From contig CAYXAU010000013.1 in assembly GCA_964463045.1 (NCBI GenBank), forward strand, positions 2,188 through 66,187: a DNA stretch of 64,000 nucleotides. The letters are read 5' to 3'. The notes under the pieces were generated by a model that was given only the letters and a program-made list of their open reading frames with translations, ran no database searches and was not told the DNA's origin. The translations under genes and the position numbers were made by a program. Positions 4,770 through 60,875 of this stretch are shown here, in pieces (positions within the stretch are counted from its first letter, which is position 1; the number at the start of each line of letters is the position of its first letter). The stretch comes from an uncultured Candidatus Sumerlaeota bacterium (lineage in GTDB: Bacteria > Sumerlaeota > Sumerlaeia > MVZB01 > JAJFLK01).

Positions 4770-5039
4770 TTAAGAACCCGAACCCGGAGGCGGGGGAAGC
4801 TTCTCGATGGGCAACTCAATCATTACAGGATGATACAAAAGGTGAATAGAAATCCCGAATTTGCGGGCGAAATAGTGGACCATTCGACGTGAAATCTCCG
4901 CCCCAAGAACGTGAGCCTCCTGAATTTCCCCCCTTGCTAGGATGTACATTCGTTCGCCGGAACCCATGGAAACTGACACGCCGGGCGCCCGAAGGACCGC
5001 GATCGCGCTCGTCGTCGGGACTGCCCCCGAGCCGGGCAT
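4770..5039 (-). CDS. Small hypothetical protein (89 aa) with predicted HicA-like alpha-beta-beta-beta-alpha pattern
   Basis: Protein-like composition in a low-GC stretch; ATG 3 nt after the upstream stop (TGA-TTT-ATG). Confidence 0.6.
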   Translation of the reverse strand: MPGSGAVPTTSAIAVLRAPGVSVSMGSGERMYILARGEIQEAHVLGAEISRRMVHYFARKFGISIHLLYHPVMIELPIEKLPPPPGSGS

Positions 5040-52821: not shown

Positions 52822-55578
52822 ATGTTGGACCGGATCGAGCTTCGAGGGGCGCGCACTCACAACCTCAAAGGGGTTTCGTGTGTCTTCCCGCATGGGGGTC
52901 TGACCGTGGTGACGGGGGTTTCCGGATCGGGGAAATCCTCGCTGGCCTTCGACACGCTTTACGCCGAAGGGCAGCGGCGCTACGTGGAGTCGCTCTCGAC
53001 TTACGCCCGTCAGTTCCTTGAGCGGATGGAGCGCCCGGCGATCGAGAGCCTGACGGGGCTTCAGCCGGCGATCGCGCTCGAACAACGCAACGCCGTGCGC
53101 AGCGCCCGCTCCACGGTCGGGACGGCCACGGAAATCCACGACTACCTTCGGCTCCTGTTCGCGCGGCTGGGGCGGACCGAATGCCCAACCTGCCGCCGGG
53201 AGGTCCGGCCCGAGACGCCGGAGTCGGCCCTCGCCACGCTGATGAGCCTGCCGCAGGGGACGCGGCTCATCGTCGTGGCGCCGACGGGGATCACGGCGGC
53301 GCGGCTGACGCCGACGCTTCGAGCCGAGTTGATCCGGGCCGGCTACCACCGCCTGTGGGATGGGTCGGCCCTCGTGGACCTCGAAGCCGAAGCGACGCCG
53401 TCGGACCCGCACGTCCCCCTGGCGATTGTGGTCGACCGGTTGGCGGTGGCCGAGGCCGATCGAACGCGACTCCACGCGGCGCTTCAGACGGCCTTTCAGG
53501 CGGGCCAGGGTCGCGCCGTCGCCGAAGTCCCCGATCGGGGGGAGCGCTTTCCATTCTCGGCGGGGATGATGTGCGACGGTTGCGGCGAGCGTTTTCCGGC
53601 GCCGGAGCCGCGGCTGTTTTCCTTTGATAACCCGCTCGGGGCCTGCCCGGCGTGCCAGGGGTTCGGCCGGATTATGGAATTGGACCTGGAGAAGGTCATT
53701 CCGGACCCGGAGCGCTGCATCGAGGACGGCGCGATCGCCCCCTGGAACTCCGAAGGCAGCATCGAGATGTACGACCTGCTGCGACGGCGGACGACGCCTC
53801 AGCAGATTCCCCGGCTCAAGCCCATCGCCGCTTTCACGCCCGCGCAGCGGGAAAACCTGATCGAAGGCGTGGGTCGGTTCCCCGGCGTCCGCGGCTTCTT
53901 CCAGTGGTTGGAATCCAAGAAATACAAGGTCCAGGCCCGCGTGATGCTGGCGCGCTATCGCGCTTACCGCACCTGCCCCGTCTGCGGCGGGGCGCGCCTT
54001 CGGCCCGAGGCGCTGAACGTCCGGCTGGCCGGGCGGACGATCGCCGAGCTGGCGAGCGAGCCGATCGGCCCGCTGGCGGATTTTTTCGGTCGGCTCGCCT
54101 TGACCGCTCGCGAACGGCAAATCGCCGGCGGGCTCATCGAGATGCTCGGCCTCCGGTTGAGTTACCTCCAGGAAATCGGGTTAAGTTACTTGAGCCTGGA
54201 TCGGCCGACGCGGACGCTCTCCGGCGGCGAGGCCCAACGGATCAATCTGGCCGCCTCGCTGGGTTCGGGGCTCACGCAGACGCTTTACGTCCTGGACGAG
54301 CCGACGGTCGGGCTTCACGCGCGCGACACCGAACGGCTCATCCGGACGCTCCAGGGGCTGCGCGATCTCGGCAACACCGTCGTCGTGGTCGAACACGATC
54401 TGGACGTGATCCGCGCGGCCGATCGGCTGATCGATCTCGGCCCCGGCGCCGGCGAGGCCGGCGGCGAGCTTCTCTTCGAGGGTCGGCTCGATGAAATCAA
54501 CGGCCTCACGACGCCGACGGCCCGCCACCTGGCGGGCTATCCCGTCCCGCCGGTCCCCACCCGCGGCCGGCCGGCCAAGGGATGGATTCGAATCCTGGGC
54601 GCCCGCGGGAACAATCTCAAGGGGCTGGACGTGGCCATCCCGCTGGGGGGGATCGTCGGCGTCACGGGCGTTTCGGGGTCGGGCAAGACCACACTGGTCC
54701 GGGACACGCTGACGGCGGCCTGGCGCCGGCGGCGCGAGCTGGCCCCGGTGGAGGCGGCCCCTTGCCGGGCGATCGAGGGGCTCGAAGCGCTCGAAGAGTT
54801 GATCTGGGTGGATCAGACGCCGCTGGCCCGCTCCAGCCGCTCCAACCCGGTGACCTACGTCAAAGCGATGGACCCGATCCGAGACACCCTGGCGTCGACG
54901 CGCGAGGCGCGGGCGCTTGGCCTCAAGCCAGCGGATTTTTCCTTTAACGTCGAGGGGGGCCGATGCCCCACCTGCAAGGGCACCGGCTATCAGACGATCG
55001 ACATGAGGTTCATGGCCGACGTGGAGGTGTTGTGCGAGAGCTGCGACGGCCGACGCTTCCGCGATCGTGTGTTGGTTTATCGCTATCAAGCCAAAACCAT
55101 CACCGATATCCTGGACCTGACGGTCGACGAAGCGGCTCGATTTTTCGCCGGGGAGCCGCGCGTCGTCCGAGCGCTCCGCCCGCTGCGCGAGGTCGGGCTC
55201 GGTTACCTTCGGCTCGGTCAGAGCACCGCCACGCTCTCCGGCGGCGAGGCCCAGCGGCTCAAGCTCGCCGGGCGCCTGGCGCGGATGCGGGACGGCCGCG
55301 GATTGTTGCTCGTCTTCGACGAACCGACGACGGGCCTTCACGCGGCCGACGTGGAACGGCTCCTGCGCGTTCTGCACGATCTGGTCGAGCGCGGCTGCTC
55401 GATCCTCGTCGTGGAACACAACCTCGATCTGATCGCTTCGGCCGATTGGATCATCGACCTGGGGCCCGAAGGCGGCGAGGGGGGCGGCCGCATCGTCGCC
55501 GAGGGACCGCCGGCGCAGATCGCGCGCTGCGAAACCTCCTGGACGGGCCGGCATCTCCGGCGTCGGTTCGGATTCTGA
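52822..55578 (+). CDS. uvrA: Excinuclease ABC subunit A (possibly a paralog)
   Basis: GARTHNLK, GVSGSGKSSLAFDTLYAEGQRRY, two LSGGEAQR signatures, zinc fingers CPTC/CDGC, DEPTVGLH and DEPTTGLH. Confidence 0.92.
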   Translation: MLDRIELRGARTHNLKGVSCVFPHGGLTVVTGVSGSGKSSLAFDTLYAEGQRRYVESLSTYARQFLERMERPAIESLTGLQPAIALEQRNAVRSARSTVGTATEIHDYLRLLFARLGRTECPTCRREVRPETPESALATLMSLPQGTRLIVVAPTGITAARLTPTLRAELIRAGYHRLWDGSALVDLEAEATPSDPHVPLAIVVDRLAVAEADRTRLHAALQTAFQAGQGRAVAEVPDRGERFPFSAGMMCDGCGERFPAPEPRLFSFDNPLGACPACQGFGRIMELDLEKVIPDPERCIEDGAIAPWNSEGSIEMYDLLRRRTTPQQIPRLKPIAAFTPAQRENLIEGVGRFPGVRGFFQWLESKKYKVQARVMLARYRAYRTCPVCGGARLRPEALNVRLAGRTIAELASEPIGPLADFFGRLALTARERQIAGGLIEMLGLRLSYLQEIGLSYLSLDRPTRTLSGGEAQRINLAASLGSGLTQTLYVLDEPTVGLHARDTERLIRTLQGLRDLGNTVVVVEHDLDVIRAADRLIDLGPGAGEAGGELLFEGRLDEINGLTTPTARHLAGYPVPPVPTRGRPAKGWIRILGARGNNLKGLDVAIPLGGIVGVTGVSGSGKTTLVRDTLTAAWRRRRELAPVEAAPCRAIEGLEALEELIWVDQTPLARSSRSNPVTYVKAMDPIRDTLASTREARALGLKPADFSFNVEGGRCPTCKGTGYQTIDMRFMADVEVLCESCDGRRFRDRVLVYRYQAKTITDILDLTVDEAARFFAGEPRVVRALRPLREVGLGYLRLGQSTATLSGGEAQRLKLAGRLARMRDGRGLLLVFDEPTTGLHAADVERLLRVLHDLVERGCSILVVEHNLDLIASADWIIDLGPEGGEGGGRIVAEGPPAQIARCETSWTGRHLRRRFGF

Positions 55579-55579
55579 G

Positions 55580-55696
55580 ATGAAGCGCCGCTGCCAAGAC
55601 GCCGGGACGCCGGTAGAGGCGACGGAACCCGCGCCGCGACCCGCCTCTTTTCTTCGTCCGTTTGTGTCTTCGTGGTACCACTCTTCGCCGTGGTTA
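55580..55696. repeat. Palindromic element, family A, forming the 5' end of the amidase ORF
   Basis: Right-arm motifs TTTGTGTCTTCGTGGT (55661-55676) and CTCTTCGCCGTGGTTA (55681-55696); left GCCAAGACGCC. Confidence 0.5.
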
Positions 55697-57538
55697 GCGT
55701 TGCTGATTGTTACTTTCCCGGCGACCGCCGCCCACGCGGCCGCGCCGCCGGAATTGTTTGAACGCCTGTGGCGCGCCCCCGGCCCTCATCAAGACGGCCC
55801 GGGAGCCCCCCGATTGCTCGTCGTCTATCCCCAGCCGGAGACTATCGTCGGCTACGATCACGATCGGACCCGATATGCGGCCCGCGTGGAGCCCCCCGAA
55901 GCCTCGGTCTTCATGGATGGGACGCCGCTGCGCGTCTGGGAAGGGGGCGTCGTGACGGGACTCGTCGAGCTCCCCGTCGGCGCGCGCGAGATCGTGCTGA
56001 CCGCCACGCACGAGGGGCGCTCGACGACCGTCCGCAGGCGCGTCATCCGCCAGGAGCGGCTCCTGGGCCCGGCGGCCTGGCCGCTCGCGTTTCATCCGGC
56101 CCGACCCGTCGAGCCGACGGGCGAGTTCTGGCTTCGCCCCGGCAGCTCGCTCGCGCTGACGCTGCGGGCCAGCCCCGGGGCGGAAGCTACTTATCGCCTG
56201 GGGGAAACCGGCCCGTGGTTGCCGATGAACCCGATCTCATCGAGCCCGCTCGACGGCGGCCGCTACGCTGCCACGCTCACGGTCCAGGGCGTCGACGCCC
56301 CCCCCGGCCCGGTCGAGCCCATCCGATTCAGAATTGAAGGTCGGCCGCCGGAGGGAGGGGCCGCTCAGCGCCGGGAGTTGACATCGGCCCTTCGCGTGCG
56401 CCGGTTGCCCTCGGATTATTCGCTCACCGGCATCGTCGGGACTTACCGGGCGACTTTCCTCAAAAACCGCAGCGATTGGCAGCGGTGGGGGAATTGGACG
56501 AGCGGGACGGTGTTCCCCGTGGGCGAGCTTCTGGGCGATCGCGTGAGCGCGCTCCTGCCCGTGGGCGCAAGCGGTTACCTCGAAAGCGCCTCCGTGCGTG
56601 TGATCGAAGCCGGCCATGCCGCGCCGCATCTGGGAGCGCCGCATGTAACTTTTTCGGATTACAAAGGGGAACCCCAAAGGGTGAGTGTTACCTGGGAGGT
56701 GCCGCATCCGCTGGCCTGCGTGTTTCATCCGGGGGAAACGGGGGGGGAGCTGATCATTTCGCTTCTGGGGGCGGCCTCGGCCGTGCCGGGCCGGTTTGAG
56801 CGTCCCGGGGGGGCGGGGCTTTTCTCGGTCGAAGTTCGCCCGGCGGGCCTCGGCCAGCCGCCGAGCCTCGCCGTGGCGATCGGGGACCGGCCGCTATGGG
56901 GTTACGATTTCGGCCCGACGGCGGCCGGAACGTTCAGCCTGAAGGCGCGGACGCGGCCGCGGCTCGGCCGGCCCTCTCAGCCGCTGGCCGGCTTCAGAAT
57001 CGCCGTCGACGCCGGTCATGGCGGCGCCGACCTCGGGGCGTTGGGGCCTTCGGGGCTGGCCGAGGCCGACGCCAATCGCGTGCTGGCCTATTGGGTCGCC
57101 GAAGAGCTGCGCGGAGGCGGAGCCGAGGTCCTCGAGATTCGCCCCGGAGAAGCCGGGGTGGAGCTGGACGATCGCGTGCTCGTCGGCCTCCGAGACGATC
57201 CGGACCTGTTTCTCAGTCTGCATCACAACTCCGTAAGCCCGACGACGGACCCGCTGCGGGACACGGGGCCTATCGTCTTTTATCACTATGATCATGCGCT
57301 CGGGCTGGCGCGCCGCATCGCCGAGGAACTGGCCGCGGCCTGGGGCGCCGGGACCCCCCCGCGCGTCGTGCGGGAGAATTTCCGGGTCAACCGCAACTTG
57401 AGCTTCTGCCCGTCGATCCTCATCGAGGGGGGGTTTGTGTGTAACCCGAACGATGAGCTGCGCCTGCGCTCGGTCGAGACGTATCAGACGGTGGCGCGGG
57501 CGATCGTCCGGGGCCTGCTTCGCGAGCTGACGGACTGA
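55580..57538 (+). CDS. N-acetylmuramoyl-L-alanine amidase (Amidase_3) with long N-terminal beta-rich region
   Basis: IAVDAGHGG, EADAN, FLSLHHNS, SILIEGGF (Zn ligands intact). Confidence 0.85.
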   Translation: MKRRCQDAGTPVEATEPAPRPASFLRPFVSSWYHSSPWLALLIVTFPATAAHAAAPPELFERLWRAPGPHQDGPGAPRLLVVYPQPETIVGYDHDRTRYAARVEPPEASVFMDGTPLRVWEGGVVTGLVELPVGAREIVLTATHEGRSTTVRRRVIRQERLLGPAAWPLAFHPARPVEPTGEFWLRPGSSLALTLRASPGAEATYRLGETGPWLPMNPISSSPLDGGRYAATLTVQGVDAPPGPVEPIRFRIEGRPPEGGAAQRRELTSALRVRRLPSDYSLTGIVGTYRATFLKNRSDWQRWGNWTSGTVFPVGELLGDRVSALLPVGASGYLESASVRVIEAGHAAPHLGAPHVTFSDYKGEPQRVSVTWEVPHPLACVFHPGETGGELIISLLGAASAVPGRFERPGGAGLFSVEVRPAGLGQPPSLAVAIGDRPLWGYDFGPTAAGTFSLKARTRPRLGRPSQPLAGFRIAVDAGHGGADLGALGPSGLAEADANRVLAYWVAEELRGGGAEVLEIRPGEAGVELDDRVLVGLRDDPDLFLSLHHNSVSPTTDPLRDTGPIVFYHYDHALGLARRIAEELAAAWGAGTPPRVVRENFRVNRNLSFCPSILIEGGFVCNPNDELRLRSVETYQTVARAIVRGLLRELTD

Positions 57539-57567
57539 GCTCGCCCCAGGCTCCGCGCCGCCCGAGT

Positions 57568-57700
57568 ATCGGGAGCGGCGATTTGCCGCTCGGTCGCGGC
57601 ACTTTCCCTGACAGGACATGAGCACAGGGGGCGTCGGGAACGGCAAGTCGGCGGACGGCTACACCCAAGCTCAGCGGAGGGGTTATTGGTATAAGCGGGC
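57568..57700 (-). CRISPR. Putative degenerate CRISPR array remnant: two repeats and two spacers
   Basis: R1 57568-57603 (36 nt) and R2 57633-57665 (33 nt) match at 21 of 33 aligned positions with one 3-nt gap; 29-nt spacer between them; about 26-35 nt of non-cas sequence between R2 and the cas fragment. Confidence 0.45.
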
Positions 57701-58264
57701 GTTGGCCCGCTCCCAGGCCTGCTTCTCATCCTGCCAGGCGCGGTGATGGCGATCCCAGTTTTCGCGGGCGCGCCGGTAGTGGGCCCGGACCCATTCGGAG
57801 GCGGCCTTAACGAGGATCATGACGTGGGGATCGCTGAGCGAGCGCAGGCGGTCGAGGAGCGCCGCAGCGGTCCGACTGCGCGGCAGGCCGGCGCAGGCAA
57901 CGGCGGCGTCGCGGACCGGTGACTCGATGTTTGAACCCAAGAGCGCTTCCGGACCCGACCAACCGGCGGCGACCTTGAAGACCTCGAGGCGACCCCGATC
58001 CGCGGGCGCTTCATCCTCCTCAAGGCCGCAGGGGGCCGGGCCGGTGAAGAAATCCCAAAGAGGGCCAAGCGAAGGATTCTGAGGCTCGCCCCTGGGCCGC
58101 AGCGCCATGAGCCACTGGCAAATCTCCGAGACGTCGCGATTGAACCGTTGGAAGTGTTCTCTCAAGCGGCGCACGTCGCCCTTGAAGGCTTGCTTTGTCT
58201 GTCCCGCTCGACGGCGTAGGGGTCGGACGAGCGTCCGGGATTGGGCATATGGCTGTTTCGGCAT
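57683..58264 (-). pseudogene. cas12g: Truncated type V-G CRISPR effector Cas12g: N-terminal ~190 aa only, no RuvC
   Basis: Collinear motifs versus Cas12g1 as recalled: RTLVRPL/RTLVRKL, GQTKQAF/GQSKQEF, FNRDVSEICQW/FNADVSGVCQW, LWDFF/FWKFF, HVMILVKAASEW/HRMILAKVAAEW, YRRARENWDRHHRAWQDEKQAWE/YRRAHQNWERNYEEWKKEKQEWE. Confidence 0.8.
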
Positions 58265-58373
58265 CGCTTCGTGACCCAGCCGATGGAGAGGTCGAAGTGC
58301 CGGGCGATCCGGGCCCGCCCGGCTGCCTGGGCCGGTCCGCCAGCCCACCGCGCCGGGCATCCTCGAGCGGAAC

Positions 58374-59210
58374 TTACGGCCTGGAGCGGATCCGCTTGGC
58401 CAGCCAGAGGTCGGGTTTACCGAAACCATGGGCGTCGGGGATGACGCCGACGAGGGCGAACCCCACGCGCCGGTAAAAGGCAAGCTGGTGAGTGCCCTCG
58501 GCCGGCGGGCGGAGTTCGGACGCCGTCGGCAACGGATGGGCGCGGGCGCCGTCCGTCGAGGTCGCCGTCGGGGACGGGTGGGCGCGCGTTCCGCCCGGCG
58601 AGGCCGGCGTCGGACTAGCCCGGGGGCCGTCGGTCGCGCCCGAAGCCGGAGCCGCTGCGGGTCCACTAGCCGGGCGCAAGAGCGACGGCGACGGGGCCGG
58701 CGCGGGGCCGGGAGCGGCTTCATCGGGCCCGGGGCCACCCGCCGCGAGCGCGGCGAGATGGGCCAGCGGGTCGGGGTAGAGGTCTTTGCCGCCCAGCGGC
58801 GTCGCGCCGGTCTCGTCGTCGGCCCCGACGAGGAGCGTGTGATATCCGGCGGCGATCGCGGCGGCTTCCAGCCCCTGGAGGAGCTTCCGCCCGATCCCGC
58901 GGCGCTGATGATCCGGATCGACGGCCAGCGGGTGAATCTCCAGCACGTGGCCCGGATAGCGCGGCTCGCCGCCGATGATCCCCGTCACCTCGCCGACGAT
59001 GTCGAGCGCCACCAGCAGAATCGTCTCCCGCCGCCGGGCCAGATCGATCAGCTCGCCGAGGGCGGCCTCCAGCGTCGGCCAGGCGTCGGTGATCGGCTCC
59101 ATCGCGCGGTAAAGAACGCGAGCGGCCTGGGCAAGCTGGACTTCGTCAGTGGCGGAAAAGGGAACAATCTCAACCGGCATCGGACTCTTGAGCGAGCGTG
59201 GGGAGGACAT
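58374..59210 (-). CDS. GNAT acetyltransferase, AAC(6')-Ia-like family, with ~80-aa low-complexity insertion
   Basis: LEIHPLAVDPDHQRRGIGRKLL, LLVGADDE, FYRRVGF.LVGVIPDAHGFGKPDLWLAK; GGAG RBS. Confidence 0.82.
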   Translation of the reverse strand: MSSPRSLKSPMPVEIVPFSATDEVQLAQAARVLYRAMEPITDAWPTLEAALGELIDLARRRETILLVALDIVGEVTGIIGGEPRYPGHVLEIHPLAVDPDHQRRGIGRKLLQGLEAAAIAAGYHTLLVGADDETGATPLGGKDLYPDPLAHLAALAAGGPGPDEAAPGPAPAPSPSLLRPASGPAAAPASGATDGPRASPTPASPGGTRAHPSPTATSTDGARAHPLPTASELRPPAEGTHQLAFYRRVGFALVGVIPDAHGFGKPDLWLAKRIRSRP

Positions 59211-59232
59211 GGGGGGTCTCCGGGGCGGGGGC

Positions 59233-59844
59233 TCAGGCGGCGTATCGGCGCATCAGGCCAACAACAACCCCCTGGATTTTAACCGACCCCGCCGGGTAAC
59301 GCATCGGTTTCATCGCCGCGTTGGCCGGCTCCAGCCGGACCCGCCGCCTCCCTTCGGGGTAGAAACGTTTGACGGTGGCCTCGTGGCCCTCGATCAGCGC
59401 GACGACCATCTGGCCCGCCTCGGCCCGGTCTCGCCGCTCGACGACGATCAGGTCCCCATCGTGGATGCCTTCGTCGATCATCGAATCCCCCCGGACCCGG
59501 AGGACGAAGGACTCCCGCGAGCCGACGAGCTGCCGCGGCACGTCGATCGTCTCCGGCGTCTCCACGGCTTCGATGGGCGCCCCGGCGGCGACAAGGCCGT
59601 GCAACGGGACGCGCCGGGCCGGGCGCAATTCGGCCTCTCCCGTCAGTTCCACCGACCGGCTGTGGTTCCAATTGCGTCGGATCAGCCCCTTGGCTTCCAG
59701 GTTCTGCAAATGTTTATGAACCGTGGCCACCGACGAAAGCCCCATCTTCCGGCCGATCTCCTCCAGCGTCGGGGAGTAACCGTTCTCCTCGATGAATCGG
59801 CCGACGCAATCCAACATCTGGCGCTGCCGACGGGTCAGGTACAT
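59233..59844 (-). CDS. lexA: SOS repressor LexA
   Basis: LTRRQ..L..V..FI...GYSPT..EI, VAAG cleavage site, GDSM Ser, ATVKR Lys; AAGGAG RBS before the ATG at 59844. Confidence 0.93.
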   Translation of the reverse strand: MYLTRRQRQMLDCVGRFIEENGYSPTLEEIGRKMGLSSVATVHKHLQNLEAKGLIRRNWNHSRSVELTGEAELRPARRVPLHGLVAAGAPIEAVETPETIDVPRQLVGSRESFVLRVRGDSMIDEGIHDGDLIVVERRDRAEAGQMVVALIEGHEATVKRFYPEGRRRVRLEPANAAMKPMRYPAGSVKIQGVVVGLMRRYAA

Positions 59845-59888
59845 AAGTAGCTCTCCTTGGGAGGAACGCGCCCCCCGATCCTGAAGCG

Positions 59889-59917
59889 AAATTAACACGA
59901 TGGATTGACGAAAGCAA
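59889..59917 (-). promoter_or_regulatory. sigma70 promoter of lexA
   Basis: Minus strand TTGCTT-N17-TAATTT. Confidence 0.55.
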
Positions 59918-60062
59918 GACGAATCCCCCTGGGGCGAGGACGACGCGGCCAACCTCCGACCGAGAAGCCGGAGGCGGGAAGGCCGCGGGGCGCCCAGGGG
60001 GCTGAGCCGAGGACAAAAGGGGTGACGCCCGCCGCCGTTCGGGGCTATCCTCCCCGGGGTCG

Positions 60063-60875
60063 ATGCAGCGTCACGCTTTATTCTCGCGGTTGTGCGTATC
60101 CAGCGGGCTTTGGCGCGGGCAGGGGATCGAGGCGGTCGCCCGCTCGATGATGCGCCTCGGGCTGAGCCGGATCGAGCTGGCCGGCGGCCACTTCCATCCG
60201 GATCGGGACAACGCCCGGGCCTTCAATTACCTGGCCGAGGCCGGCGTCGCCGTGGCCGTCCTGCGCCTGACGGGGCTCGAACGGGGGCAAAAGCTCCGGG
60301 CGATCGAAGAGGCGGGCCGACGCGGCGTCCCGGCGGTGATCGACCGGGCCGAAGAACTCCTTTTCCCGGACTTGATCGACCGGACGCGCGAGTACGTCCT
60401 CTGCGCGGGCTACAACGGGGTTTACCTTATCCTCGACAACGATACGGCTTCGGACTGCGATCACGCCACGGCCCAACTGGCCTTATCGCGCGTCGTCCGC
60501 CATCCGGCCCTGCGGCTGGGGTTCTCGCCTTCGCACGCCGTCGCCGGCCGGCGCGAGCCCGCCGACGAAGTCCGCGCCTTGGGTCGCCATCTCATGATCG
60601 CCTACCTCGCCGACGCGCCGGAGGACGTCGTGGCGCGGTCCCGGCGTGAGGTCTTCGGCGAGGCGCCGCCGGTCTCGCGGCGGCCCGGCGCGGCGCCCGG
60701 GCGTCTTGATTGGGTCGCTTACTTCCAGGCCCTGGCCTCGATCCGGTTTCAAGGGCTGCTGAACCTGGGCTGGACGGCCTCGCCGGAGCCGGGTTCAGCC
60801 CGGACCGAGTGGGAAATCGCCGAGGCCATCGGCTTCTGCGCCGCCGCGGCTCGCCAGGCGGGGCTCCACCCCTGA
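60063..60875 (+). CDS. Xylose-isomerase-like/AP-endonuclease-2 TIM barrel protein with degenerate metal site
   Basis: LG...IEL N-terminus, LRLGF.P.H, G.LDW..YF.AL..I.F.G.L pattern. Confidence 0.65.
   Translation: MQRHALFSRLCVSSGLWRGQGIEAVARSMMRLGLSRIELAGGHFHPDRDNARAFNYLAEAGVAVAVLRLTGLERGQKLRAIEEAGRRGVPAVIDRAEELLFPDLIDRTREYVLCAGYNGVYLILDNDTASDCDHATAQLALSRVVRHPALRLGFSPSHAVAGRREPADEVRALGRHLMIAYLADAPEDVVARSRREVFGEAPPVSRRPGAAPGRLDWVAYFQALASIRFQGLLNLGWTASPEPGSARTEWEIAEAIGFCAAAARQAGLHP

Follow-up and report, generated by a model that had tools for sequence, protein, structure and literature searches.

A 64-kb window of DNA from an uncultured Candidatus Sumerlaeota bacterium (positions 2,188–66,187 of contig CAYXAU010000013.1, assembly GCA_964463045.1) contains what is most probably a type V-G (Cas12g) CRISPR-Cas locus that no longer functions, reduced by deletion to a stub of the trailer end of its array. 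Type V-G systems are rare and are known almost only from metagenomes. On the minus strand, the 5′ part of a cas12g gene is followed in the same direction by two degenerate 36-nt repeats, R2 and R1, which enclose a single spacer, and the other parts of such a locus are absent from the window. The features of the site are, in window coordinates:

55580–57538, plus strand: N-acetylmuramoyl-L-alanine amidase gene, convergent with the cas12g fragment
57539–57564, no strand assigned: GC-rich flank from R1 to the amidase stop codon, 26 nt, GC 0.88
57565–57600, minus strand: R1, terminal degenerate 36-nt repeat GCCGCGACCGAGCGGCAAATCGCCGCTCCCGATACT, matrix rank 2
57601–57629, minus strand: spacer CCCTGTGCTCATGTCCTGTCAGGGAAAGT between R2 and R1, 29 nt, GC 0.55
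57630–57665, minus strand: R2, degenerate 36-nt type V-G CRISPR repeat GGTGTAGCCGTCCGCCGACTTGCCGTTCCCGACGCC, matrix rank 1
57666–57694, minus strand: junction segment TTATACCAATAACCCCTCCGCTGAGCTTG, 26–29 nt, or up to 37 nt if the cas12g homology ends at WERA
57683–58264, minus strand: truncated cas12g open reading frame (ORF), 193 codons from the ATG at 58264 to the TAA stop codon at 57685–57683

The minus-strand ORF from 58264 to 57683 is an N-terminal fragment of Cas12g of about 190 residues. In a phmmer search against the PDB, it matched the Cas12g chains 6xmf/6xmg, 8i3q and 8i16 (E = 5e-40), with ORF residues 2–189 aligned to residues 14–201 of the 767 residues of the chain. The homology begins at codon 1 and ends at about codon 187–191 (about 57703–57692), the last 2–6 codons being unrelated sequence, which agrees with the preliminary description of the ORF as a broken cas12g ending at codon ~185–190. 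In the family alignment, the homology continues through ...EKQAWERA and possibly also through NARL, which aligns with NPEL/NRAL of the family. When 20 full-length relatives were compared with the window by tblastn, only their residues ~1–190 found a match, at 58264–57692, and nothing significant was detected in the 64 kb for the rest of Cas12g (~580 residues); about 75% of the effector is gone, RuvC included, and there is no zinc-finger region either. The ~190 codons of the fragment are free of frameshifts and keep 34 of 42 family-conserved residues (81%; 77–100% in intact members).

When 1.84 billion representative proteins were searched exhaustively, 41 relatives of the ORF were found, of which the full-length ones measure 724–933 aa. 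Even the closest Cas12g relatives stay below 50% identity (43% within the representative library, 49% at the best genome locus and 42% in the metagenome scan). Word-index protein searches returned nothing but the protein of the window itself and a single homologue, which is frameshifted, and a first genome scan returned nothing. A closely related genome carrying either an intact locus or an empty site was found in none of the protein, genome and metagenome searches, and the best relative of the amidase is 50% identical and shows no synteny. Because no close relative was found, we infer the ancestral state and the exact breakpoints from distant loci. As a separate observation, a frameshift of one base breaks a cas12g homologue on a Logan contig of SRR21705952 (L001:1081–1130) into gene calls of 192 aa and 502 aa; it falls in an A-rich stretch (GAGAAAGAAAGG) at about codon 184, and the homologue shares 49% identity with Cas12g1 over the N-terminus. 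This frameshift lies at most ~8 codons from the point corresponding to the end of the cas12g homology in the window, and may be a coincidence, a sequencing error or a real pseudogene.

Reference loci were collected from GTDB genomes by alignment of five Cas12g relatives, which gave 23 loci, and a metagenome scan added eight more. Most of the GTDB loci belong to Planctomycetota/Phycisphaerae MAGs and the others to Anaerolineales, Hydrogenedentota, Ignavibacteria, Caldithrix and Elusimicrobiales. Repeats and intergenic segments were compared across 21 independent cas12g loci (18 for the first matrix). Wherever downstream DNA is present the layout is uniform, cas12g being followed on the same strand by a segment with the tracrRNA and leader and then by the array, with 197–235 nt from the cas12g stop codon to the array (longer in three loci). 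This intervening segment can be aligned across the 21 loci and is strongly conserved across phyla (L002–L029). It comprises a promoter-like TTGAC...TAnAnT, a tracrRNA beginning CTTTGAGTC, a conserved scaffold, an anti-repeat, a T-run and a leader of ~55 nt, in which a motif AAG...AAGnnGTTAC stands about 10 nt ahead of the first repeat in the 21 loci; this motif may be a promoter of the array. The arrays are built of 36-nt repeats and ~30-nt spacers with a period of 65–67 nt, mostly 66, and the repeats follow the pattern GGTGCG/GCTGCG....CCG..GAATTG.CGG.TTTCGACACC, with a near-invariant 3′ handle GACACC (20 of 21 end in ACACC). Orientation and handle agree with the crRNA used experimentally with the hot-spring (Karmadon) Cas12g, which is given in the supplement of PMC10707612 as ...TTTACCGGCTCCGACACC followed by the spacer; the tracrRNA given there begins AGTGCTTTCTGAGTCG.... 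No correlation was observed between repeat similarity and Cas12g protein similarity across loci, since all relatives lie at much the same distance. The comparison of the 21 loci also yields, as a side product, a profile of repeat, tracrRNA and leader that can be used for type V-G loci.

In the intact arrays, the repeats proximal to cas12g are perfect (36/36), whereas the last one to four repeats at the far end are often degenerate. The last repeat matches the consensus at only 21–32 of 36 positions in ten loci (L003, L004, L006, L008, L009, L011, L013, L015, L027 and L029), and two to four final repeats are degenerate in L004, L006, L011 and L015. Progressive decay of the trailer can be followed at L006:5096–5340, where the period becomes 69 nt, at L004:10506–10607 and at L015:13830–13997, which suggests that old trailer units are no longer homogenised. 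Short arrays were also found: in a Caldithrix MAG an intact cas12g is followed by just two repeats (36 and 35 of 36) and one spacer (L018:6492–6593), and in an Ignavibacteria MAG by three repeats (L017:2672–2839), so that mini-arrays occur naturally in type V-G loci.

The two repeats of the window lie on the strand of the cas12g fragment, R2 starting 18 nt and R1 83 nt past its stop codon, in the 144-nt intergenic region (57539–57682) that separates the fragment from the amidase gene. They align without gaps at a period of 65 nt, inside the family range of 65–67, and share 21 of 36 positions (58%). Two repeat sequences 65 nt apart had been proposed at this place as elements of 33 and 36 nt aligned with a 3-nt gap; the sequences and their distance stand, and the bounds and the gap give way to two ungapped 36-mers. 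The 29-nt segment that had been described between them remains a spacer of the same length (57629–57601). R2 keeps 12 and R1 10 of the 15 positions that are conserved in at least 80% of family repeats, and the best identity to the repeat of a single locus is up to 24/36 for R2 (with L008) and 23/36 for R1 (with L021). The 3′ handle is altered in both, to GACGCC in R2 and GATACT in R1 versus GACACC in the family. No third repeat-like 36-mer was found in phase on either side or within ±200 nt.

A position weight matrix built from 18, later 21, repeat consensuses was run over both strands of the window, so that each of the 127,930 possible 36-mers received a score. R2 ranked first and R1 second, and these ranks were stable over six settings (window or uniform background, each with three pseudocounts), with scores of 15–16 bits for R2, 12–14 bits for R1 and 3–6 bits less for the next best site (for instance, 15.0, 12.1 and 9.0 bits, the last being the next site anywhere, with the window background and pseudocount 2); true family repeats scored 11–39 bits when left out of the matrix one at a time. 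The per-position probability, estimated from 20 Mb of first-order Markov sequence, was 1e-6 for R2 and 3.9e-6 for R1, so a window of this size is expected to contain by chance 0.13 matches at the level of R2 and 0.5 at the level of R1. R2, however, falls among the ~110 positions that come immediately after the cas12g fragment on its strand, and R1 exactly one 65-nt period further on, and the joint chance of both scores, strand and position is of the order of 1e-9; it is this geometry that makes chance negligible. At the level of sequence, the resemblance of R1 and R2 to type V-G repeats is confirmed as lying far beyond chance, and the likeness to Cas12g repeats that the preliminary description had pointed out reappears in the two best window matches to the 21-repeat profile, with the right strand, length and period. 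The objection noted there, that the pair might show no similarity to type V repeats and resemble one another no better than shuffled controls, is answered by these two ranks.

Other measures of repeat likeness were less discriminating. An nhmmer search with the repeat profile (local and bias-corrected) reported R2 at E = 86 and did not list R1, so that neither was singled out; the case for significance is therefore carried by the ranks in the full-length matrix scan, combined with position, strand and phase. Within the 144-nt intergenic region, the highest score for an ungapped direct repeat was 11 (25 nt, 72%, spacing 65), a value reached by 12.7% of the 144-nt tiles of the window and by 3.9% of dinucleotide shuffles, and the mutual similarity of R1 and R2, which lies within the window background, was rejected as sole evidence. 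Most of their mismatches had been noted to be transitions, and indeed 10 of 15 are, against a background of 31% (P = 0.005), an excess that fits two copies diverging by point mutation. Elsewhere in the window, at 4770–4890, weak nhmmer matches to the repeat profile (E = 1.2) and to the tracrRNA/leader profile (E = 6–9) fall in the same ~120 nt; the covariance model gave no support to this site, and it is regarded as chance.

R1 contains a hairpin, GAGCGGC-AAATC-GCCGCTC, of 7 bp (57573–57591; −14.2 kcal/mol, z = −2.55), which is stronger than in 197 of 200 shuffles and has no T-tract after it. Since RNAalifold on the family repeats gave no consensus pairs, this hairpin is not a family feature; one may speculate that it is an incidental 3′-end structure between convergent genes. 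A scan of the intergenic region for promoters and terminators yielded no promoter-like site, no terminator-like site and no canonical intrinsic terminator, and an Rfam scan of 55000–60500 gave sub-threshold chance matches only. The worry that R1 might be only a terminator hairpin was well founded as to the strength of the hairpin, yet R1 is a full-length repeat match in register with R2. Chance likeness in GC-rich intergenic DNA, with R1 merely a terminator-type hairpin between the convergent genes, would accommodate the background-level mutual similarity, the nhmmer result and the hairpin, but we regard it as extremely improbable in view of the ranks of the two sites immediately behind a cas12g fragment, one period apart on its strand, the excess of transitions, and a hairpin that comes without a called T-tract terminator and is compatible with a repeat origin.

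Neither spacer-like segment led to a protospacer, which is uninformative for a single old spacer. The 29-nt spacer is unique in the window and had no exact match in IMG/VR contigs and no overlapping match among GenBank phages or PLSDB plasmids; the junction segment is likewise unique in the window, with no exact match in viral contigs and no overlapping blastn match among phages or plasmids. Two chance matches in the plasmid search lie over repeat sequence and are free of spacer.

The segment that joins the cas12g homology to R2 bears on how the stub arose. As the preliminary description had stated, it is richer in AT than its surroundings (GC 0.57 over 57702–57666, compared with 0.69 for the window), and the premature stop codon of the cas12g ORF lies in it. 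Its length is about that of one spacer, and it is probably the remainder of the spacer that preceded R2. Nothing of the conserved intervening segment was detected: the 21-locus intergenic profile gave its best nhmmer match in the window elsewhere, at E = 6.2; a 98-position covariance model for the tracrRNA core, run with filters off, gave its best at E = 2.7, far from the locus; and the leader motif AAG..AAGnnGTTAC is missing from the 26–37 nt ahead of R2. These results are in keeping with the earlier proposal that the gene had been joined directly to a spacer of its own array, and the degenerate far-end repeats of intact arrays (21–32/36, as against perfect proximal ones) support the trailer end as the part that was left. 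That one deletion was responsible and that it ended in the penultimate spacer, as also proposed there, are conjectural details.

An alternative is that R2 and R1 are a complete mini-array of two repeats and one spacer, one or more deletions having ended in the leader, so that the sequence ahead of R2 is a remnant of that leader. The Caldithrix locus, with an intact cas12g and exactly two repeats and one spacer, and the Ignavibacteria locus with three provide natural counterparts, and without an ancestor the breakpoint cannot be placed. Such a reading would, however, require a leader remnant of 26–37 nt without the motif that is present in 21 loci, and 26–29 nt happens to be about the length of one spacer. 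In addition, the first repeats are perfect in every intact array, including that of Caldithrix (36 and 35 of 36), whereas R2 and R1 agree at 21 of 36 positions. We therefore consider a complete mini-array unlikely, although the array of the ancestor may never have been long, since intact cas12g genes with two or three repeats exist.

According to the deletion reading that we prefer, the ancestral locus would have comprised a cas12g of ~750–900 codons, 197–235 nt with promoter, tracrRNA, terminator and leader, and an array transcribed in the direction of cas12g. A deletion of at least ~2 kb, possibly a single event, would then most simply have begun at about codon 187–191 of cas12g and ended near the far end of the array, at the edge of a spacer or slightly within it. 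It would have removed at least ~565 codons of cas12g (REC, RuvC and zinc-finger), the ~205–235 nt that held tracrRNA and leader, and one or more repeats together with any additional units, and would have left, in this order, the 193-codon ORF, a 26–29-nt spacer remainder, R2, the 29-nt spacer, R1 and the 26-nt flank. R2 and R1 were probably already degenerate trailer-end copies when the deletion occurred, as in many intact arrays, because the 42% by which R1 and R2 differ, had it accumulated after the break, would imply far more decay of the gene fragment than it shows. No interference activity would be expected from what is left, to judge from its sequence, because nuclease domain and tracrRNA are both missing and neither repeat has an unaltered GACACC handle.

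An assembly artefact, in which the 5′ part of cas12g was chimerically joined to the far end of the array while the real genome keeps an intact locus, deserves consideration in that every related locus derives from a MAG or a metagenome and the assembly of CRISPR arrays is difficult. Collapse of repeats, however, would join repeat to repeat rather than a coding position to a spacer; both repeats are strongly degenerate, the 3′ handle included, which assembly errors do not produce; and the genes on either side are ordinary and single-copy, within one unbroken 64-kb window. We accordingly give such an artefact a very low probability.

Just as improbable, in our judgement, is that the stub still functions, either as an orphan mini-array served in trans by an intact Cas12g and tracrRNA encoded elsewhere in the genome or through a co-opted Cas12g fragment and the R1 hairpin. 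The ORF is intact over its 193 codons, with 81% of the family-conserved residues retained, the hairpin is unusually stable, and, as the analysis covers the 64-kb window, a second V-G locus may lie elsewhere in the genome. The repeats, on the other hand, are only 58% identical to one another and both are altered in the GACACC handle, there is no leader or promoter motif, the window holds no tracrRNA, and no other genome was found with the same truncated form. If selection nevertheless kept the stub, for which we see very little likelihood, it might represent a domesticated piece of a type V effector, such as a small guide-RNA-binding or regulatory protein, or a transcript-end element between the convergent amidase and the truncated cas12g.

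Compared with type V-G CRISPR-Cas as known from Cas12g with its tracrRNA (PDB 6xmf/6xmg, 8i3q and 8i16), the stub retains homology over the N-terminal ~190 residues, 36-nt repeats with the pattern GGTG/GC.G...CCG..AA.T...CG..T.CGA., a 65-nt period and a same-strand array downstream of cas12g; it differs in lacking ~75% of the effector and the tracrRNA/leader, in having only two repeats left and in its mutated handle. The 3′ end of the repeat adjoins the spacer, as it does in the Karmadon Cas12g crRNA given in the PMC10707612 supplement (...CCGGCTCCGACACC, then the spacer). The two repeats resemble the degenerate trailer repeats at the array far end of intact loci (L004, L006, L008, L009, L011, L013, L015 and L029), with the difference that degeneracy there usually affects the 3′ half of the last repeat, whereas here the differences are spread along both R1 and R2. 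R1 and R2 (21/36) also do not show the near-identity within one array that is seen in intact arrays, and unlike in those arrays no consensus copy of the repeat survives for comparison. Like known array remnants without a working effector, the stub sits amid housekeeping genes (uvrA, amidase, GNAT and lexA); unlike them it still has the truncated effector gene attached, and for this reason its origin can be traced.

The site documents the decay of a type V-G locus among housekeeping genes of a high-GC chromosome, in which a trailer stub would have survived the loss of nuclease part, tracrRNA and proximal array. What is seen here is real yet commonplace: deletion has worn down a defence locus that belongs to a known system, and as a relic it opens no new biological question. 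Its value is practical and concerns annotation. The 193-aa ORF deserves the label of a cas12g pseudogene, and the intergenic region that of a CRISPR remnant, which standard array finders miss because only two divergent repeats are present.

The wider neighbours of the cas12g fragment are uvrA, a GNAT acetyltransferase gene and lexA. The uvrA-like ORF (52822–55578) stops one base ahead of the amidase ATG (55580), and this tight packing makes it probable that the two are co-transcribed. Of the 652 residues of the amidase, only 474–647 are covered by the Pfam domain match, and no family matches the N-terminal ~470. In the GNAT ORF (58374–59210, minus strand), the Pfam match is limited to residues 41–131, and a Pro/Ala/Ser-rich low-complexity insertion of ~80–100 aa, at window 58521–58613, includes a 42-nt tandem repeat (2.2 copies, TRF score 116), with a local GC of up to 0.81.
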